Shown here in pieces: positions 2,475 through 20,639 of a stretch of 20,639 bases of DNA (positions within the stretch are counted from its first letter, which is position 1; each line of letters opens with the position of its first letter). Source of the stretch: a virus (taxonomy: Duplodnaviria; Heunggongvirae; Uroviricota; Caudoviricetes); the IMG/VR virus record IMGVR_UViG_2713896773_000003, positions 1-20,639 of that record; one strand, written 5' to 3'. The translations under genes were made by a program, and so were the position numbers. The notes beneath the pieces were generated by a model, which did not search any database, was not told the origin of the DNA, and saw nothing but the letters and a program-made list of their open reading frames with translations.

Positions 2475-3114
2475 ACCATCCCGCCGTAAGTGCAAAGTAT
2501 GCGGTGAATACTTCGTGCCGAAATTCCACGACATCCGGATCCGCTGGTGCTGCCCGGAACACGGCGCAATCCTCGCAATGGAAGAGCGTGAAAAGGAGAA
2601 GGTGAAAGCCGAGGCTAAGCGCATCAGGGAGCAGAAGGAAGCCGAGAAGGAAGGGCGCAAGCGCCGTAAGGCCAAGCGCGAGTCACTCAAGTCAAAATCT
2701 CAGTGGGATAAAGAGGCTCAATCGGCCTTTAACCGCTACATCCGGATCCGCGATGAAGGTAAGCCATGTGTCAGTTGCGGCAATCCACTCATCGGCAAAA
2801 GCAATTACCTGACTGGCAGCGCCATTGACGCCAGCCATTACCGTTCACGTGGCGCTGCCTCACACCTCAAATTCAACGTGTTTAACGTCCACTCCGCTTG
2901 CACCCGCTGTAACCGGCAGTTGAGCGGTAATGCTGTCGAGTACCGGATCCGCCTGATTCATCGCATTGGCCTTAAGCGCGTAGAGCGGCTCGAAGCTGAC
3001 AATGCCCCACGCCGGTTTGACGTTACCTACCTGAAGCGCGTGAAAGCAATTTTTTCCCGCAGGGCCAATGCACTGATGAAGCGCCGTCAAAAACTACAGG
3101 AGAGTGCAGCATGA
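2467..3114 (+). CDS. ninG: NinG/Rap-like recombination protein (Holliday-junction and branched-DNA endonuclease family)
   Basis: GAGGAGG (2454-2460) 6 nt before ATG. Cysteine and histidine motifs CKVCGEYF, WCCPEHG, CVSCG, DASHYRSRG and CTRCNRQLSGNAVEYRIRLI follow the lambda NinG/Rap pattern as I recall it. Lysine and glutamate-rich basic linker in the middle. Confidence 0.85.
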   Translation: MCKPSRRKCKVCGEYFVPKFHDIRIRWCCPEHGAILAMEEREKEKVKAEAKRIREQKEAEKEGRKRRKAKRESLKSKSQWDKEAQSAFNRYIRIRDEGKPCVSCGNPLIGKSNYLTGSAIDASHYRSRGAASHLKFNVFNVHSACTRCNRQLSGNAVEYRIRLIHRIGLKRVERLEADNAPRRFDVTYLKRVKAIFSRRANALMKRRQKLQESAA

Positions 3115-3752
3115 AATGCAAAGTTGAAGGTTGTGAGCGTGAATGCAAACACTACCCAGGAAAGGGTATCTGTCAAATGCACTACTTCCGAATGATGCGC
3201 TACGGGACCTACGAACTCACAAAAAATGGTAAAGGGAAATTCAGGCATAAAAATGCGAAGGGATATCAAATGCTCAAAATTCCTGATCATCCACTATCAA
3301 TGGCGAATGGCTGCGTTTATGAGCACCGAAAAGTTGTTTACGACCGCTATGGAGAAACACTTCCACCATGCGAAAAATGCGGCAAGAAGGTCACATGGAA
3401 AACCGCGCATATTGATCACATTGATGAGGTTGTTGATAACAATGCGGACTCAAATCTTAGGGTGCTTTGCCGAGCGTGTAATGTCATGCGATCTCGAGTG
3501 CATATCCCTGAGCACACAAAAAAAGGACGCACAGCCATAACTTTCAATGGCGAAACGAAAACCGCCACAGAATGGTCAAGGGACCATCGCGTTTCAGTAT
3601 CAGAAACATCCATCAAGCGTCGACTAAAAAATGGAATGAATGTAGAGGATGCGCTTTTTTCTCCCAAAGTAACCCACAGGCATACCAGGCCAAGAGGAAG
3701 AACACCTCTGTATGGTGAATATCGCGGACCAAAGCAGAAGGAGTCAGCATGA
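3111..3752 (+). CDS. HNH homing-type endonuclease with an N-terminal Cys/His cluster and a C-terminal DNA-binding-like region
   Basis: ATG overlaps the ninG stop (ATGA). Cys/His cluster CERECKHY...CQMHY. HNH core EHRKVVYDRYGETLPPCEKCGKKVTWKTAHIDHIDEVVDNNADSNLRVLCRACN (His, Asn, His with flanking CxxC pairs). Codon and base composition are visibly more AT-rich than the flanking nin genes. Confidence 0.8.
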   Translation: MKCKVEGCERECKHYPGKGICQMHYFRMMRYGTYELTKNGKGKFRHKNAKGYQMLKIPDHPLSMANGCVYEHRKVVYDRYGETLPPCEKCGKKVTWKTAHIDHIDEVVDNNADSNLRVLCRACNVMRSRVHIPEHTKKGRTAITFNGETKTATEWSRDHRVSVSETSIKRRLKNGMNVEDALFSPKVTHRHTRPRGRTPLYGEYRGPKQKESA

Positions 3753-3865
3753 ACCACACCGACTTCCTCCGGTACCAGGCCGAAAGCGTTAAGCGCGCCT
3801 ACCTGCCGCCAGTAGCAAAGCACAGCCAGACCAAAACCCACCAGCCACAGAAGGAAGCCGCATAA
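3749..3865 (+). CDS. Possible very small ORF (38 aa) coupled between the HNH gene and the Q-like gene
   Basis: ATG 3749 overlaps the HNH stop (ATGA); its stop TAA 3863-3865 overlaps ATG 3865 of the next gene (TAATG). No motif recognised. The overlaps suggest translational coupling, but such a short ORF could be chance. Confidence 0.3.
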   Translation: MNHTDFLRYQAESVKRAYLPPVAKHSQTKTHQPQKEAA

Positions 3866-4674
3866 TGAACCTCGAATCAATCGCTAAATACTTTGCGCCT
3901 AAATCACCGATGTTCAGTGACTCTCCTCGCGCAACCGCATCAGACAGTCTCACCGGCACTGACGTTATGGCGGCGCTTGGCCTTGCTGGCCACAAGTGCG
4001 GGTTTGGTTTCGATCTTTACCTCTCGAAAATCGGCATTAGCAGCCCAGATATAGCACTGGAGAGACTCTATGAGCAGGCACGTAAGTTATCAGGTAAATT
4101 CAGAGCACTGTCTGAACTCGATGAATCAGCTCGGTCAGGCGTGCTTAAGGTTCTCTGCGCTTTTGCATACCAGGATTATTCAAGAAGTGCTGCCAGCACT
4201 CGAAAATGTGATTGCTGTGATGGTGGCGGATTTACAGAGGCGCAAGTGTTTACCAACAAGGTCTCATACCCATGGGGGAAACCGCCTTACTGGTCGAAAA
4301 TGTCGCGTGCCGTTCGCCCAAGCGACTGGGAGAGCTGGACACAGGCGCGTGAGGTGGTGCGAGTTAAGTGCAAGCCGTGTAACGGAAAAGGCGTTATCAG
4401 CAATTCGTGTCGCTGCCATGGCAAAGGTAAGGTGCTGGACAAGGCAGAAAGCGATCGCCAGGGCGTTCCAGTAATGAAAGCCTGCGACCGCTGCGGTGGT
4501 AGAGGTTACGCCAGGCTTAAGTTCTCAACGGTAATTGAGGGCGTTAATACTGTTGCGGAGATAAAGAAAACGGCGGCATATGAGCAACTTCAGCCGCTAT
4601 TTGAGGAGTTGGTCGCCGAATGCCATAAACAGGAGTCTATGGCTGATTCCATTCTCTCAAAAGTAACGAGATGA
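3865..4674 (+). CDS. Putative late-gene antitermination protein Q-like, with four CxxCxGxG zinc-finger-like repeats
   Basis: Last gene before a long non-coding region containing promoter and terminators and the lysis cassette, which is the canonical Q position. Repeats CDCCDGGG, CKPCNGKG, CRCHGKG and CDRCGGRG suggest zinc binding. Family assignment is by position and from memory that some Q-type antiterminators are zinc-binding. Confidence 0.55.
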   Translation: MNLESIAKYFAPKSPMFSDSPRATASDSLTGTDVMAALGLAGHKCGFGFDLYLSKIGISSPDIALERLYEQARKLSGKFRALSELDESARSGVLKVLCAFAYQDYSRSAASTRKCDCCDGGGFTEAQVFTNKVSYPWGKPPYWSKMSRAVRPSDWESWTQAREVVRVKCKPCNGKGVISNSCRCHGKGKVLDKAESDRQGVPVMKACDRCGGRGYARLKFSTVIEGVNTVAEIKKTAAYEQLQPLFEELVAECHKQESMADSILSKVTR

Positions 4675-6310: not shown

Positions 6311-6329
6311 TTCGTCACCCAAATAACAG

Positions 6330-6354
6330 AGCCTGACTTCGGTCGGGCTTTTTT
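6330..6354 (+). terminator. Rho-independent terminator after the lysis cassette
   Basis: Stem AGCCTGAC (6330-6337) / GTCGGGCT (6342-6349): 8 bp with one G-U pair, UUCG tetraloop, T-run 6349-6354, 20 bp after the Rz stop. Confidence 0.65.
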
Positions 6355-6381
6355 ATTCCCAGAAGAAGCAGGAGAAGAAGC

Positions 6382-6582
6382 ATGTTAACAGTAAAAGTAA
6401 TGTCGCCAGGTGGCGGTGAAGAGATTCATTGCGGGTTGAGTGTAGGGTTCAATCCGGGGCAGCAGAGCATCGCGGTATCGGGAATGGACAAAAATGTATT
6501 CCTGAAACCTGGCGAGGTCGCCTACGTGATGAACCAGAACGGGAAGACGGTATCTCGTTACGAGCATAATGACCGCCAGTAG
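6382..6582 (+). CDS. Hypothetical small protein (66 aa), function unknown
   Basis: GGAG (6371-6374) 7 nt before ATG 6382, in a purine-rich leader. Glycine-rich, probably beta-rich small protein; no motif recognised. First gene of a three-gene set between the lysis terminator and the terminase. Confidence 0.55.
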   Translation: MLTVKVMSPGGGEEIHCGLSVGFNPGQQSIAVSGMDKNVFLKPGEVAYVMNQNGKTVSRYEHNDRQ

Positions 6583-6681
6583 CCATTCCAAAGCTCACCT
6601 GCTGGTGGGCTTGATAATGGATATCCCCCTGAGCGGATAAATCAAAAATAACCCCTGCAACGGATAATGACGGAGCAACAG

Positions 6682-7053
6682 ATGGCAAAAGCCAAATGGC
6701 ACAAACTCCCGGCGTTCACCATTCCGCTGTTTCAAAGTGCACACGTCTACCTCGCAACAACCAGAGAACAGTTTCAGCACGCTGATAAATTCCTTGGCGG
6801 CAGCGGGGATGAGAAGCCATTCAATCTTGGGATTGCAAGCAACTATGAAAACACTGATACGGGAGAGCGAGTTTACCTGATTGGAGTATTCGATCAGCAG
6901 ATATCAACTCTCGTTCACGAATGCGCTCACGTATGTTTTTACGTCTGCTCTGATGTGGGCGTAACGACCAATCCGGAAGACGCAAACGAAACCTACTGCT
7001 ATCTGCTCGACAGAATGTTTTCGGCATTTTTGCCGTATATAAAACAGGATTAA
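6682..7053 (+). CDS. Hypothetical protein with HExxH motif (HECAH), possible small zinc-metallopeptidase-like protein
   Basis: Track ORF 6667..7053. ATG 6682 has GGAG (6672-6675) at 6-nt spacing, whereas ATG 6667 lacks a spaced RBS. Motif TLVHECAHV with a Glu about 19 residues downstream (PEDANE), a gluzincin-like arrangement. Only a 3-nt gap to the next gene. Confidence 0.55.
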   Translation: MAKAKWHKLPAFTIPLFQSAHVYLATTREQFQHADKFLGGSGDEKPFNLGIASNYENTDTGERVYLIGVFDQQISTLVHECAHVCFYVCSDVGVTTNPEDANETYCYLLDRMFSAFLPYIKQD

Positions 7054-7056
7054 CTC

Positions 7057-7695
7057 ATGGTGAACGAAGACGAGCGCAGGCCACTTCCACCAGTTAATTT
7101 CATTGGCCCTGATAACTGGCAGCCCTACACCAGATTGATTCCCGCCAATGAAGTGCATGACTGGATAAGCCATCAAATCCTCAGCGATAGCGGAAGCATC
7201 CATAACCCAGACCACGCCCATTTAATGGAAGCTGATTTGTGTTTTATGTGGGCTTCTGACTCATTCGCGAAGAAAGGGCGCTACGTTCTCGGACAGGCCG
7301 AACAGGTAATGCTCCGCGCAGGTGGTTGGCAGAAAGCCAGAATGGAACAGCAGATGTATGAATGGTTCGGGCGCATCCCGAAGTTCATCATCACGCTGGC
7401 AGCCGACTACTGCTCACAATGCAGCGACCTTGAATTCTGCGCCCTGGTAGAGCATGAGCTTTACCACATTGCCCAGGCCACCGATGATTTCGGCGCACCT
7501 AAGTTCAACAAAGAGACCGGGCAGCCAGTTCTCACATTGCGCGGCCACGACGTCGAAGAATTTGTCGGTGTTGTGCGTAGATACGGGGCGAGCACTGAAG
7601 TGCAAGAACTGGTGGACGCAGCCAATCAACCTGCAGAGGTGGCAAAACTTAACATCGCCAGAGCGTGCGGGACGTGCATGCTGAGACTGGCGTGA
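7057..7695 (+). CDS. Putative phage metallopeptidase-domain protein (HExxH motif HELYH, SprT-like or phage metallopeptidase-like)
   Basis: CAGGA RBS 7 nt upstream; coupled to the previous gene. Motif CALVEHELYHIAQATDDFG with Glu about 20 residues after, plus cysteine pairs CSQCSDLEFC and CGTC. Family identity is from memory. Confidence 0.6.
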   Translation: MVNEDERRPLPPVNFIGPDNWQPYTRLIPANEVHDWISHQILSDSGSIHNPDHAHLMEADLCFMWASDSFAKKGRYVLGQAEQVMLRAGGWQKARMEQQMYEWFGRIPKFIITLAADYCSQCSDLEFCALVEHELYHIAQATDDFGAPKFNKETGQPVLTLRGHDVEEFVGVVRRYGASTEVQELVDAANQPAEVAKLNIARACGTCMLRLA

Positions 7696-16437: not shown

Positions 16438-17037
16438 ATGGTGGGGTCTGTTAATCAGCCGTTCCTGGCTGCCATTCAGCTGTTCGTGGATGGCTCGAAG
16501 CAGGAGATGGACGAGGTGGTGCGCCGGACGGGTATTAAAATCCTCGCTCAACTGGTTGAGATGTCCCCGGTGGGCCAACCGGATATCTGGCAGGTCAACC
16601 AGACCGCGACGGCGTACAACACTGCGGTGCGGGAGCATAACGCGACCCTGCGTGATGACCCGGCTAATCTGACCAAATCAGGACGACTTAAGCGCGGCCT
16701 GCGCGTCAACGACTCGATGGACATCAAAAAGCCTGAGGGCTATGTCGGCGGGCGGTTTAAAAACAACTGGTATGTGGGCTTTGACAGCCAGCCAAGCCAA
16801 TCCAACGACACCCCCGACGCTTCCGGCCAGGGTTCCAACTCCCGCGGTCTGGCAGTGCTCGAGGTGTTCCGGGTAGGGCAGGTCAGCTCGATTTTCTTCA
16901 CCAATAATCTGCCATATGCGGCAGCACTGGAGAACGGGCATTCCGGCCAGGCACCCGGCGGCATGGTGGGCATCACTGCGCTGGATGCCGCGCAGTTGTT
17001 CCGTGAGGCAATGAGCGAGGTGCGCAATGGCCAGTGA
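16438..17037 (+). CDS. Putative neck or tail-completion protein (HK97 gp10-like position)
   Basis: A 199-aa ORF tightly packed with neighbours; assignment by position only. Confidence 0.45.
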   Translation: MVGSVNQPFLAAIQLFVDGSKQEMDEVVRRTGIKILAQLVEMSPVGQPDIWQVNQTATAYNTAVREHNATLRDDPANLTKSGRLKRGLRVNDSMDIKKPEGYVGGRFKNNWYVGFDSQPSQSNDTPDASGQGSNSRGLAVLEVFRVGQVSSIFFTNNLPYAAALENGHSGQAPGGMVGITALDAAQLFREAMSEVRNGQ

Positions 17038-17476
17038 CCAGTCAATGCGAATTGCTGAACTACTGGAGAGCCGCATTGCGGTTATCTGCTTATCGCTTGG
17101 GCTGCCCGTAGCCTGGCCGAACATACCGTTTACTCCCCCGGATAGCTCACCATACGGGCGTGTTTATGTTCTGCCGGCACAGACGGTGGGGCAAGACCTG
17201 GAAGGTCAATTGCGAACCTATCAGGGCATCCTGCAGCTCAACATCATTGCGCCAGCAGGCAGCGGCGTGACGCAGGCCAGAGGGCTGGCTAAATCTGTCG
17301 CTGATGCATTTCCTGAAGGGCTTGCGCTGGTGGATGGTGACCTGACTGTTTATATCAATGGGCCGCCGCAGGTGAGACAACCCATCCAGGACCGGCCAAC
17401 CTCGGCGTCCAACGGGTCCAGTGGCTCCATAACCTACACCATTCCCGTCAGCATGCAGTACCGCGCTGACTACTGA
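17027..17476 (+). CDS. Putative tail terminator or tail-completion protein
   Basis: A 149-aa ORF overlapping the upstream gene by 11 nt, immediately before the major tail gene and followed by a terminator hairpin. Confidence 0.5.
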   Translation: MASDQSMRIAELLESRIAVICLSLGLPVAWPNIPFTPPDSSPYGRVYVLPAQTVGQDLEGQLRTYQGILQLNIIAPAGSGVTQARGLAKSVADAFPEGLALVDGDLTVYINGPPQVRQPIQDRPTSASNGSSGSITYTIPVSMQYRADY

Positions 17477-17499
17477 CCCGCCAGATGGCGGGTTTTTTA
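17477..17499 (+). terminator. Rho-independent terminator-like hairpin before the major tail gene
   Basis: Perfect stem CCCGCC (17477-17482) / GGCGGG (17487-17492) with loop AGAT, followed by TTTTTTATT (17493-17501). Confidence 0.6.
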
Positions 17500-17522
17500 T
17501 TACCTAAATTCAGGAGAGTGCT

Positions 17523-18455
17523 ATGGCATTCGCAATCCCTAACGGCTCGCGTGTTAACGTGGCCAAGGCCTATCAGGCTCCCATCACCTTTACCGCTGCC
17601 TCTAACGCTACTGAATGCGAACTGACTGTTGCATCTGCCGCTGGCATCCTGGCGGGCGACGTAGTGCAGGTGAGCTCCGGCTGGCTAAAACTCGATAATA
17701 TGGTGCTGCGCGTTAAATCCGTAGCCGGTACCAAAATCGTGCTGGATTCGTTCGATACCTCTGACACCACCAAATTCCCGGCAGGCACTGGCGCGGGCAC
17801 GCTGCGTAAAATCGACACGTGGATCACGATGCCGCAGGTGATGACCCTCTCCACAGAGGGTGGTGACCAGCAGACCATCAGCGTGCAGTTCCTTGAAGAC
17901 GATAAGGCCCGTACCATCCCGACCTTCAAAAACGCCGTGGTGCAGGTCTACACCTTCGCGCACGATCCGCTGCTGGCAATTTACAAGCGTCTGAGTGAAC
18001 TTGACGAATCCAGCGACACCACTGCTGTGTGGTTCCATAACCCGCGCGGCAAAGCGGACCGTTATTACTCTGCCAAAGTGTCTTTCCAGAAGGTGCCTAA
18101 GACCGAAATCAACGCCGTGGAAAGCAACGAAGCGCGCATGAACTTCGAATCGGATATGCAGATTTACCCGATCGCCGATTCATCCGTTACGCCGCTGGCG
18201 TTCCTGACTGATCTGCCATCAACCAAAGCAGTTAGTGTTGGAGATGCGCTCGATTTAGCCGTCGTTATGCAAGGCGGCTCAGCCCCTTACACCTACGTGT
18301 GGAAGAAAGGAAGCTCCGCAATTCCGGGCAAAACCGCCTCGACGTTCAACATTTCGTCTGTCTCATCCGGTGATGCTGGCGTTTATACCTGCGAAGTCAC
18401 TGACGCCGCAGGCAAGACCCTAACGTCGGCGGCATGCACCGTTACTGTCAGCTAA
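17523..18455 (+). CDS. Major tail (tube) protein with C-terminal Ig-like domain
   Basis: AGGAGAG RBS. 310 aa. C-terminal about 85 aa carry Ig-like hallmarks (PYTYVWKKGSSAIPGKTASTFNISSVSSGDAGVYTCEVTDAAGKTLTSAACTVTV). Lies upstream of the chaperone and tape-measure genes. Confidence 0.75.
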   Translation: MAFAIPNGSRVNVAKAYQAPITFTAASNATECELTVASAAGILAGDVVQVSSGWLKLDNMVLRVKSVAGTKIVLDSFDTSDTTKFPAGTGAGTLRKIDTWITMPQVMTLSTEGGDQQTISVQFLEDDKARTIPTFKNAVVQVYTFAHDPLLAIYKRLSELDESSDTTAVWFHNPRGKADRYYSAKVSFQKVPKTEINAVESNEARMNFESDMQIYPIADSSVTPLAFLTDLPSTKAVSVGDALDLAVVMQGGSAPYTYVWKKGSSAIPGKTASTFNISSVSSGDAGVYTCEVTDAAGKTLTSAACTVTVS

Positions 18456-18463
18456 CCAATCAG

Positions 18464-18486
18464 GCCCGGTTCGCCGGGCTTTATTT
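18464..18486 (+). terminator. Rho-independent terminator after the major tail gene
   Basis: Perfect stem GCCCGG (18464-18469) / CCGGGC (18474-18479) with UUCG tetraloop, followed by TTTATTT. Confidence 0.65.
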
Positions 18487-18671
18487 CGCAATGAGTACCG
18501 CTGGCGAATTTTCTGTATTCGCATTACCCATCTTTTCAAACTGCGCCTTCACACGCGCTCTCTAACCAAGAACCTTTCAGAAAGCGTTCCTGAGAACTGC
18601 CGTTAGTGCCGGTGGGCCTCTTGGGGCGGCTTTTCTGTGTGAACAGGTTCGCTTTTTAAAAGGTACACACC

Positions 18672-19202
18672 ATGAATCACCCAACCGTCTCAGTGAATGG
18701 GGTCTCCGTCCGCGTTGATGACGAAGGCCGGTACAGTCTTAACGATCTTCATGCGGCAGCGGTAGCTAACGGAGAGGCTACTGAGTCACAAAGGCCCAGC
18801 GTCTTCCTGCGTAGCGCGCAGATCAAACGCTTCGTTAAAGCGCTAAAATCCAAAGCACTAAAAAGTGCTTCGGAACAAAATCAACCACTTAAGGTTATAA
18901 AAGGCGGTGATCAAAGTGGTGCATGGGGCATTGAACTTCTGGCAATCCGCTATGCCGCCTGGATAAAGCCAGAGTTTGAGATTGAAGTGTACGAAGTATT
19001 TAGAACAGTGGTGCGTCTTGGTATCAGTGCCATGTCCCGCCTGAACAAAATCGACCACATCATCAACACTGAAACCAAGGCAATTAGCCAGTGTGCCAGC
19101 CAAATGGCCAAGTGGGGTGTTGGTGGTCGCAAGCAGCTATTACATGCAGCCCGGGATCGCGTCGCCGACGAAGTCCAGATGTATCTGCCCGGCATTAACT
19201 AA
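18672..19202 (+). CDS. KilA-N domain protein (DNA-binding domain with a C-terminal extension of unknown function)
   Basis: N-terminal region VSVNGVSVRVDDEGRYSLNDLHAA ... AWGIELLAIRYAAWIKPEF matches the KilA-N / APSES-like pattern. Preceded by a 216-bp non-coding region and followed by a hairpin terminator; more AT-rich than the flanking tail genes. Confidence 0.7.
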   Translation: MNHPTVSVNGVSVRVDDEGRYSLNDLHAAAVANGEATESQRPSVFLRSAQIKRFVKALKSKALKSASEQNQPLKVIKGGDQSGAWGIELLAIRYAAWIKPEFEIEVYEVFRTVVRLGISAMSRLNKIDHIINTETKAISQCASQMAKWGVGGRKQLLHAARDRVADEVQMYLPGIN

Positions 19203-19204
19203 TA

Positions 19205-19228
19205 CCCGCTACGGCGGGTTTCGTTTTT
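19205..19228 (+). terminator. Terminator-like hairpin after the KilA-N gene
   Basis: Stem CCCGC (19205-19209) / GCGGG (19214-19218) with loop TACG, followed by TTTCGTTTTT. Confidence 0.55.
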
Positions 19229-19241
19229 CTAAGGAACCGAA

Positions 19242-19580
19242 ATGACCAAATTCTCCCTGATCCCGAACCCGACCTTCTCCGTTACCGCCAGCATCCCGCG
19301 CGCTGGTGCTGAAGACGGCAAGCTGACCTTTACCTTCCGCCACAAGACACTGGAAGAGCTGCGCTCTATGGATGAAAAGCTGCAAAAGTCGGCTGAAGGT
19401 AAAAAGGCTGCTATCGAGCCGCAGGCCGACTACCTCATGGAAATTGTCGAGGGGTGGGCACTACCTGACGAGTTCACCCGCGACAACGTTATTGTCCTTC
19501 TTCAGAACTACCCGCGCGCGTTCGACAGCATCGGTCTGGCCTACACCAAAGAGCTGATGGGTATCCGCGAAAAAAACTAA
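19242..19580 (+). CDS. Tail assembly chaperone (lambda gpG-like)
   Basis: A 112-aa ORF with AAGGAA RBS, directly upstream of the tape measure gene, ending in a run of 7 A that forms a slippery site. Confidence 0.75.
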   Translation: MTKFSLIPNPTFSVTASIPRAGAEDGKLTFTFRHKTLEELRSMDEKLQKSAEGKKAAIEPQADYLMEIVEGWALPDEFTRDNVIVLLQNYPRAFDSIGLAYTKELMGIREKN

Positions 19581-19885
19581 GGCAGGTCGCCGCAGCGTTG
19601 TACACGCCGGGACCGACTCTCGCGGAGTTAGCCGCTTTTGGTTTGACGCCTGAGGACGTGGAGGAAGAGGTGGGTATCCTGCCCTCTGTGTGGAAGTCTT
19701 TCACCATCTTCTCTGCCCTGGCAACCCAGTGGCGCGTCGGCGCGAGCGGGGCGACCGGCCTTGATTACAACGTTCTCCCCTGGATGTTCGAGTTACACGG
19801 GGTTGAGGATGCGGCGGCCTGCATGGCTGACCTTCAAATTATGGAAAGCGAGGCTCTCAAGGTAATGCATAAGGAGACGAAATAA
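19242..19885 (+). CDS. Tail assembly chaperone G-T fusion (gpGT-like), produced by -1 frameshift near 19571-19577
   Basis: Track ORF 19598..19885 lies in the -1 frame relative to G and ends 1 nt into the tape measure start codon (TAATG). Conserved G then T then tape-measure arrangement. The coordinates span a frameshifted product, not a continuous ORF. Confidence 0.55.
19571..19577 (+). other. Programmed -1 ribosomal frameshift site (slippery heptamer A_AAA_AAC) for G-T fusion
   Basis: Zero-frame codons GAA AAA AAC TAA end the G gene. The -1 frame is open from 19577 to the TAA at 19883-19885 with no stop. The heptamer is analogous to the known U_UUA_AAC class of slippery sites. Confidence 0.55.
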
Positions 19886-20639
19886 TGACAGACCAGATCG
19901 CCTCGATTACTTTGCGGGCCGATGTTTCTGACCTGAAAACAGCCAGCAACGAACTGGATAAACTCGGCCAGGCGGCGGCCGGTGCTGTAGATAAAGCAGA
20001 TGATCTGAATAGCGTGTTTCGCGCTGGCGCTGAATCTGCGAAGCAAGGCAGCGAAGGACTCAAGGAGCAGCAGAACGCGCTCAAAGGGCTGCTGGAGAAT
20101 ATCGACCCGGTTACCAAGGCCTTAAACCGCCTGGATGAGCAGCAAGAATCGCTGCGGAAATTCCAGGCCAAAGGTTTCCTGGATACCGATACCTTTCAGG
20201 CATACAACAAAATCCTGGATGACACCCGCCTCAAGCTGACCGACACCGGAGAAGCCGCGGCGCGCGCTCAGGCTGAATTAGCCGCTACCCAGGCGGCAGA
20301 AAAGCAGTCCGCAGCGTTAAAGAACCTTCTTGGATCCATCGACCCGACTATCCGCGCGTTCAATTCGTTGGATGAACAGCACGCACAGCTGGTGGAACAT
20401 TTCGAAGCTGGGCGCATTAACGGTGCTCAGTTCGAGCACTTCAACACAATCCTTAACCAGACGCGTGAGCGCCTCTCTGGTGTCGCTGACGTACTACCAG
20501 AGGCGCTATCCCGGCAGGAAGCTGCTGCCCGGCGCGCTGGAATCTCCGTTGGTCAGTACAGCGCAGCAATGCGCACGCTTCCGGCGCAATTCACCGATAT
20601 CGCCACGCAGCTGGCTGGCGGTCAGTCGCCGTTCCTGAT
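19885..20639 (+). CDS. Tail tape measure protein, N-terminal part (3' end beyond window)
   Basis: Not in the ORF track because no stop occurs in the window. ATG 19885 preceded by AAGGAG (19871-19876); I translated 251 codons with no stop. Product MTDQIASITLRADVSDLKTASNELDKLGQAAAGAVDKADD ... ends with GISVGQYSAAMRTLPAQFTDIATQLAGGQSPFL, a lambda-H-like tape-measure motif. Confidence 0.85.
   Translation, partial: MTDQIASITLRADVSDLKTASNELDKLGQAAAGAVDKADDLNSVFRAGAESAKQGSEGLKEQQNALKGLLENIDPVTKALNRLDEQQESLRKFQAKGFLDTDTFQAYNKILDDTRLKLTDTGEAAARAQAELAATQAAEKQSAALKNLLGSIDPTIRAFNSLDEQHAQLVEHFEAGRINGAQFEHFNTILNQTRERLSGVADVLPEALSRQEAAARRAGISVGQYSAAMRTLPAQFTDIATQLAGGQSPFL

Follow-up and report, generated by a model that had tools for sequence, protein, structure and literature searches.

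Accessory genes of phage late operons are usually taken as morons, that is, as independent genes expressed from the prophage. Transposable elements such as IS10 and IS200 are protected against transcription from outside by a terminator in front of them and/or by fold-back pairing that conceals the ribosome binding site. The ant moron of P22 has been described (PMC2629481), and rha is known as a late-operon gene that impairs phage growth in hosts lacking IHF (cited in PMC4936722). Here we analysed a KilA-N gene carried by a 20,639-nt stretch of phage DNA (IMG/VR record IMGVR_UViG_2713896773_000003; the whole stretch is referred to as the window), which a preliminary description had presented as an autonomous transcription unit expressible from the prophage. 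We consider it probable that this gene is carried by one member of a large family of accessory cassettes which temperate enterobacterial phages have in their Q-dependent late operons and whose expression is gated by a folded leader RNA; the gene is best understood as belonging to such a late-operon cassette. By itself the KilA-N gene is an ordinary phage accessory gene; the RNA encoded in the spacer in front of it raises the interest of the locus considerably.

The leader RNA upstream of the KilA-N gene

From the stop codon of the major tail gene (18455) to the ATG of the KilA-N gene (18672) there are 216 bp, as the preliminary description had it. It had also called this spacer non-coding and pointed to inverted repeats such as GCGAAT(7)ATTCGC. 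Positions 18541-18671 of the spacer encode a structured RNA leader. The palindrome is present as well, but 6-bp inverted repeats are not above chance (34 such pairs in 821 nt), and this one is kept only in the KilA-N cassettes of the same slot (loci L009, L017, L019 and L021). The significant inverted repeats of the spacer are a 21-nt pair (18572-18592/18644-18664) and a 7-nt pair (18548-18554/18637-18643).

Alignment of the regions upstream of about 30 KilA-N loci revealed that ~130 nt before the ATG are conserved across very different phages and genera. When ~28 homologues were each folded alone, the same architecture was obtained, with a small GC hairpin followed by a linker of 13-20 nt and a long imperfect hairpin made up of the helices P0, P1, P2 and P3, in which an internal loop of 6-7 nt lies between P1 and P2 on the 3' side only. 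A covariance model (R1) built from 25 sequences has a single strong match in the window (Table 1). On the model alignment 91.4% of the cells are paired, compared with 37-53% when the partners are slid, 25 of the 31 pairs change on both sides, and covariation is seen in every helix; none of 500 shuffles matched the observed values. In 26 of 31 sequences pair 45-152 of the long hairpin is C-G, with covariation at the pairs next to it. The stem of the 5' hairpin becomes GUGCA/UGCAC in L025 and L031. G.U pairs exceed A.C mismatches (71 versus 25), which points to an RNA of the plus strand.

The loop of the 5' hairpin and the internal loop of the long hairpin are complementary to each other. This pseudoknot, found with a repeat finder, comprises 6-7 bp, with 7/7 pairs in the window copy, and in other copies its strands read UCGCAC/GUGCGA, CCACAU/AUGUGG, UUCGCGU/ACGCGAA, UUCUCGU/ACGAGAA, UCUCAC/GUGAGA, UUCGUAC/GUACGAA, CUCACC/GGUGAG or UGCCC/GGGCA. 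It is 90.7% paired on the model alignments, with all six of six pairs covarying, and 98.1% paired in 72 further sequences. Since the model was built without the pseudoknot, the alignments used for this test were not fitted to it.

Unpaired invariant nucleotides are very few across the leaders, which argues against a ligand pocket or a ribozyme core and for shape recognition or simple structural control. Searches of Rfam 15 with the window segment 18300-19400 and with the P22 copy returned only chance-level matches (E 0.2-0.8), C4, IsrK and the self-cleaving ribozymes included, and no earlier description of the leader was found in the literature searched. Judged from sequence comparison, the leader is a well-supported structured RNA that is apparently undescribed.

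Several other candidate elements were set aside. A helix between GARCC of the linker and GGYUC of the 3' arm, proposed by RNAalifold on a MAFFT alignment, is 69% paired on the model alignment, not above shuffles; its competitor, helix P1b, is 92% paired. Also dropped, for want of conservation between clades, were sigma-E and sigma-54 motifs, a boxA/nut-like site (GCUCUCUAAC, restricted to the window clade), a k-turn and, in the linker, an IHF site.

The cassette family and the slot in the window

The covariance model recovered ~100 distinct copies of the leader. A pattern scan of viral contigs gave 80 loci, and with the model there were 81 strong matches in 80 contigs, in addition to genome loci. 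Every strong match ends on an ATG that opens an open reading frame (ORF). The pooled cargo of the viral contigs and of the genome, phage and Escherichia coli loci fell into 16 clusters. KilA-N proteins accounted for 38 copies, tail-tip-fibre-like proteins for 28 and Rha-like and related proteins of 171-202 amino acids, the third commonest cargo, for 19; further cargo comprised glycosyltransferase-like proteins of 485 amino acids (5 copies), ANT/KilA-C, Phage_pRha and HNH proteins (2 copies each), T5orf172/MUG113 and TerB-like proteins (1 copy each) and several small unknown proteins. A terminator-like hairpin stands at most 120 nt upstream of 81 of 97 leaders (84%, against a background of 9%) at a median distance of 20 nt from stem to leader; for the window leader the distance is 55 nt. 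The long ORFs on either side run in the direction of the leader in 103 of 107 loci.

Some of these copies lie in well-known phages and strains. The leader precedes rha in P22 (79.6 bits) and phi80 (118.7 bits), orf45 in ST104 and sb54 in ST64B. In P22 (L160, NC_002371) it occupies positions 39506-39646, and the ATG indicated by the model (39644) is in frame with the annotated rha start (39575) and 23 codons downstream of it. The annotated start falls within the leader hairpin, and the N-terminus predicted from the model ATG, MNELIANHDFDF, is like that of other Rha-like cargo; the start of P22 rha has probably been mis-annotated. The phi80 region of E. coli TOP10 (L161) carries leaders at 1905-2037 and 3499-3614, before rha and a 242-amino-acid hypothetical ORF, and the same region with leaders is found in NEB5-alpha. 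There is a copy at 2999-3127 in E. coli Nissle 1917 (L162), and blastn with the HK639-type leader alone found it in 219 of 5426 complete E. coli genomes.

In HK639 and its E. coli relatives the leader stands upstream of tail-tip-like cargo. Stand-alone tail-tip-fibre proteins, similar to the C-terminal part of lambda J (PF09327), are the second commonest cargo and were seen in L001 (4600-5280), L004-L007 and L012 (2952-3767); they might serve as virion parts, decoys or exclusion factors. Tandem cassettes are present in L012 and L025. The first six codons (M-x-Y-P-T-V) are common to KilA-N, Rha-like and P22_AR_N-like cargo, which are otherwise unrelated; this was seen in the cargo ORFs of the window (18672), L108, L084, L103 and L091, and may reflect either a recombination joint just inside the ORF or codons that are part of the RNA element.

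The phage nearest to the window is HK639, with 86.6% nucleotide identity, and the similarity breaks precisely between two hairpins, both annotated as terminators in HK639, where that phage has an unrelated 226-amino-acid gene with a tail-tip-fibre domain. As the same hairpins flank different cargo in HK639, they belong to the slot and not to the KilA-N gene. Where complete E. coli genomes contain this tail module, most have tail-tip-like genes of 263-309 amino acids in the slot, and some have an extra 111-amino-acid ORF besides the tail-tip-like gene. In E. coli ET729 the tail tube and chaperone genes are just 65 bp apart. Its slot (L003, 2434-2501) keeps the terminator and 10 nt, AAAGTCTTTC, fused to the ribosome binding site of the chaperone gene. 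These 10 nt are identical to the P0 5' arm in the HK639-type leader, so the ET729 slot is probably a deletion scar, and its interpretation as an empty virgin site was rejected.

Same-slot KilA-N alleles in Kluyvera, Pseudescherichia and Atlantibacter are 70-96% identical to each other, with flanking genes at ~90%. Close KilA-N homologues are also found at other late-operon junctions. In Salmonella phage 29485 and E. coli GN25 they lie before the tape measure gene and behind the gene of a DUF6246 protein, and in ST64B and the P22-like ST104 they occupy the Rz/terminase junction. The comparison of relatives, with other cargo in HK639 and E. coli and a remnant in ET729, supports the earlier proposal that the KilA-N gene is an accessory insertion within a conserved tail block.

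The KilA-N identity of the protein and the place of its gene, behind the major tail gene and ahead of the G and G-T chaperone genes, were given correctly in the preliminary description and are confirmed by the Pfam match of the protein (PF04383, E 3.8e-15, 56.1 bits against a gathering cut-off of 23.8) and by the domains of the neighbouring products. The ORF also matches phrog_129. All 506 homologues of the window protein are named KilA-N domain protein, and their length is uniform (170-180 amino acids); the C-terminal 60 residues are conserved and predicted to form two long helices. Pfam gives KilA-N alone for the window protein, the ANT/KilA-C domain (PF03374) not being found there; cargo with an ANT domain does occur behind other copies of the leader. 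PADLOC returned no defence-system family for the protein at E <= 0.01. The AlphaFold model has low confidence (mean predicted local distance difference test score, pLDDT, of 58) and was too poor for fold searches, and a marginal match to the MarR-type protein TcaR in a profile search of PDB sequences (E 0.003) was set aside. The G+C content of the gene is below that of its flanks (0.51 versus 0.65-0.70 at third codon positions, GC3). Most likely the protein binds DNA as a regulator or serves in competition between phages.

The window represents the right arm of a lambdoid prophage. Its genes all lie on the plus strand, in the order nin genes and an HNH gene, the Q antiterminator, holin, lysozyme, Rz, terminase, portal and head genes, followed by the tail terminator gene, the major tail protein, the KilA-N ORF, the chaperone, DUF1799 and the tape measure gene. 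Eight strong intrinsic terminators lie between 4796 and 19229 within one Q-dependent late operon, so the flanking of the KilA-N gene by terminators is not unusual there. Both flanking hairpins had been noticed before. The upstream one, whose homologue is annotated in HK639, was overlooked by our consensus scan, probably because its stem can extend into the T run; the downstream one was found by the scan, is kept behind the different cargo of HK639 and is missing from the ET729 remnant.

The chaperone and DUF1799 ORFs (19242-19885) are arranged in 0/-1 frames with GAAAAAAAC close to the end of the first, a layout consistent with a G/GT-type programmed frameshift. At 6328-7695, the terminator behind Rz is followed by ORFs of 66 and 128 amino acids, a putative phage metallopeptidase (7057-7695) and the terminase genes; no leader copy was found at this Rz/terminase junction of the window, where P22-like phages have leader cassettes.

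Table 1. Positions of the leader elements, the KilA-N gene and surrounding features in the window
Feature	Position	Strand	Details
Q antiterminator	3865-4674	+	Heads the late operon
Strong terminators	4796, 5088, 6328, 13016, 15035, 17475, 18464, 19204	+	
Major tail protein (tail tube)	17523-18455	+	Phage_tail_3 and C-terminal Ig domain
Upstream intrinsic terminator	18464-18486	+	GCCCGG TTCG CCGGGC, then TTTATTT; slot boundary common to HK639 and ET729
Palindrome	18504-18522	+	GCGAAT-N7-ATTCGC; between terminator and leader
Structured RNA leader	18541-18671	+	Model R1: 123 bits, E about 1e-24; match reaches the ATG (18674)
Small 5' hairpin	18543-18558	+	GCGC, loop C-UUCACAC, GCGC; 98% of cells paired
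Pseudoknot, 5' strand	18548-18554	+	Hairpin loop UUCACAC; exact 7-nt complement of 18637-18643
Long hairpin, 5' arm	18572-18592	+	P0 ACCUUU (anti-Shine-Dalgarno), then P1 AGAAAGCG..CCUG; from single-sequence folds and helices 2 and 3
Upper hairpin	18593-18636	+	P2 AGAA/UUCU, P3 GCCG/CGGC, variable apical region with near-invariant GGGGC
Pseudoknot, 3' strand	18637-18643	+	3' asymmetric internal loop GUGUGAA
Long hairpin, 3' arm	18644-18664	+	P1 CAGG..CGCUUUUU, then P0 AAAGGU
Shine-Dalgarno sequence	18660-18663	+	AAGG; inside P0, 8 nt upstream of the ATG
KilA-N domain protein	18672-19202	+	176 amino acids; Pfam KilA-N PF04383, residues 9-113
Downstream intrinsic terminator	19204-19229	+	ACCCGC TACG GCGGGT, then TTCGTTTTTC; stem 19204-19219, found by scan
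Tail assembly chaperone	19242-19580	+	Phage_TAC_4
DUF1799 ORF	19598-19885	+	-1 frame, before the tape measure gene

Expression of the cassette

With a terminator directly upstream and no intervening promoter, we infer that the cargo is transcribed by Q-modified polymerase. The KilA-N gene would be reached only by such terminator-resistant polymerase during lytic growth and would stay silent in the prophage. The folded leader, with the Shine-Dalgarno sequence paired and the hairpin locked by the pseudoknot, would set or time translation, possibly also mRNA processing or stability. Although the late transcript is very abundant, a DNA-binding, potentially harmful protein would in this way be made sparingly or at a set time. 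The leader may be a portable expression module, which would explain why unrelated cargo is joined precisely at the ATG. Post-transcriptional gating of cassette genes under antiterminated late transcription appears to be its most likely function. For a broader proposal we see about equal chances either way: that the leader represents an undescribed, widespread class of pseudoknotted cis-acting RNA, a plug-in module (terminator, leader and any cargo at the ATG) that ties the expression of its cargo both to late transcription under antitermination and to a post-transcriptional step governed by host or phage, and that could be the unrecognised target of the IHF/Rha phenotype in P22 and phi80.

The preliminary description amounted to a classical moron, with its own promoter in the 216-bp spacer, insulated by terminators and active in the prophage, where it might serve exclusion, anti-repression or the killing of the host, an explanation that we regard as quite unlikely. 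It agrees with the inserted position of the gene, with a composition unlike that of the flanks and with the terminator behind it, and BstA offers a precedent for a KilA-N-like protein that is expressed from a prophage and acts in defence (PMC8585504). However, a consensus scan found no sigma-70-like promoter in 17000-20639, and the best score of a -35/-10 hexamer scan of 18456-18675 was 8, under the mean of 8.9 for shuffled sequence. Some related KilA-N cassettes have a TATAAT, which speaks for a promoter; the same site reads TCTAAC in the window, a -35 element is absent in every clade, and a TATAAT-like hexamer occurs in 10 of 97 distinct leaders, the other 87 lacking one. Most leaders start 8-27 nt past the terminator stem, many of them at 8 nt, which leaves no room for a promoter. 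The missing PADLOC match also speaks against the moron view, and the ST64B homologue sb54 is not mentioned in the searched text of a lysogeny transcriptome paper (PMC7067206), which is weak evidence. Autonomy of the unit was therefore not borne out: no promoter was found, the leader fills the interval between terminator and gene, the operon is headed by Q, and flanking terminators, eight strong ones being present in the operon and the same hairpins enclosing other cargo in HK639, are no sign of independence.

Several points weigh against gating of an antiterminated transcript as the whole explanation. The TATAAT just mentioned is perfect and lies in the linker between the 5' hairpin and P0, 7 nt before the hairpin base, in L002, L008, L010-L014, L018 and L024; in the copies looked at one by one, which include Salmonella phage 29485 and E. 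coli GN25, the cargo is always KilA-N. Some of these members may be transcribed on their own. Such transcripts would start at the hairpin base and lack the 5' hairpin and the pseudoknot, a hint that the pseudoknot may tell read-through transcripts from the cassette's own. In the window, a non-consensus or activator-dependent promoter may lie in 18487-18571. The pairing probability of the Shine-Dalgarno sequence is 0.91, compared with 0.90 when the upstream part is shuffled, so the case for its sequestration rests on the covariation of P0. The fold is more elaborate than occlusion needs, and translation control may thus not be its main or only job. On the side of method, the pattern used to gather the viral set prescribes part of the internal loop, and alignment to a covariance model favours the nested helices, the pseudoknot being exempt from this bias.

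The near-continuous duplex of ~20 bp plus ~10 bp with an asymmetric internal loop, intercistronic and directly behind a hairpin, would also suit an RNA processing element, in which the cargo mRNA is freed from the polycistronic late transcript through self-cleavage or through a site for the host enzymes RNase III or RNase E. We consider this unlikely as the main job of the leader, and similarly doubtful that the upstream terminator hairpin would shield the new 3' end, as at phage T7 RNase III sites. Pairing of a hairpin loop to an internal loop resembles the topology of the pistol ribozyme; the very few invariant unpaired nucleotides, however, are unlike known ribozyme cores, and no Rfam ribozyme family matches. 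Processing is in any case compatible with gating and does not exclude it. Very improbable, in our view, is that the inverted repeats act as DNA, providing a site at which cassettes recombine or insert as they pass from phage to phage, in the manner of integron attC hairpins. One leader joined to unrelated cargo at many junctions, the first six codons shared by several cargo families and the adjoining terminators could be read in that way, but no recombinase accompanies the cassettes, and homologous recombination in the conserved leader accounts for the mosaicism. An RNA is indicated by the excess of G.U over A.C, by the covarying pseudoknot and by the constant position of the element relative to the Shine-Dalgarno sequence and the ATG.

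If gating by the leader holds, many late-operon accessory genes, among them those for KilA-N, Rha and Ant-like regulators, nucleases and tail-tip-like proteins, would be late genes wired via one shared RNA module instead of independent morons. The pseudoknot, P0 and the terminator offer a mutable handle on when and why phages make poorly understood DNA-binding proteins, and the element is at hand in model systems such as P22, phi80, the phi80 remnant in DH5alpha/TOP10 and E. coli Nissle. The leader also predicts start codons for annotation, as for P22 rha, and may serve phage design as a natural insulated expression cassette.

Comparison with known systems

The window cassette resembles the morons of lambdoid phages (Juhala/Hendrix; HK97 gene 15, P22 ant) in being an extra non-morphogenetic gene between two late genes that in relatives are direct neighbours or enclose something else, with atypical composition, a terminator behind it and a fast-changing slot. 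The extra gene is evident from HK639, the five E. coli prophages and ET729, the last of which looks like a secondary deletion, and the downstream terminator is in place. An own promoter, by contrast, is detectable neither in the window cassette nor in ~90% of the family, and the cassette further differs from morons in the terminator immediately upstream and the conserved structured leader before the gene. With BstA, which acts in abortive infection from prophage BTP1 (PMC8585504), the window protein shares an N-terminal KilA-N-like DNA-binding domain and an enterobacterial prophage as its home. It is shorter, has another C-terminal part (~60 residues) and no PADLOC match, and its gene lies in the late operon, not beside a repressor gene.

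Among structured RNAs, c4 of P1/P7, CI of P4 and IsrK of Gifsy-1, the leader RNAs by which antirepressor operons are controlled, also stand upstream of antirepressor-like genes and have loops that pair downstream near a translation start. The pairing of the window leader differs in being intramolecular, with an internal loop and not the ribosome binding site as partner, and the leader has no Rfam match; it is found in late operons and not in immunity regions, and its cargo extends beyond antirepressors. The protection of IS10 and IS200 is alike in the terminator just upstream and in a helix that engages the Shine-Dalgarno sequence of a gene which belongs to a mobile unit and may do harm. The cassette differs in having no transposase, in relying on antiterminated read-through and in its covarying pseudoknot and upper helices. 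Its duplex length and internal loop are also suggestive of an RNase III site, as far as can be predicted.

The rha genes of P22 and phi80 have the same leader directly upstream, likewise in the late operon and behind a terminator. Their products carry the Phage_pRha domain and not KilA-N, and the genes occupy the Rz/terminase junction and not the one between tail tube and chaperone; the published IHF link of rha (cited in PMC4936722) is not known to be connected to this RNA. With the other members of the R1 family the window copy shares the 5' hairpin, helices P0-P3, the pseudoknot, the end on the ATG and the terminator behind which the leader sits.

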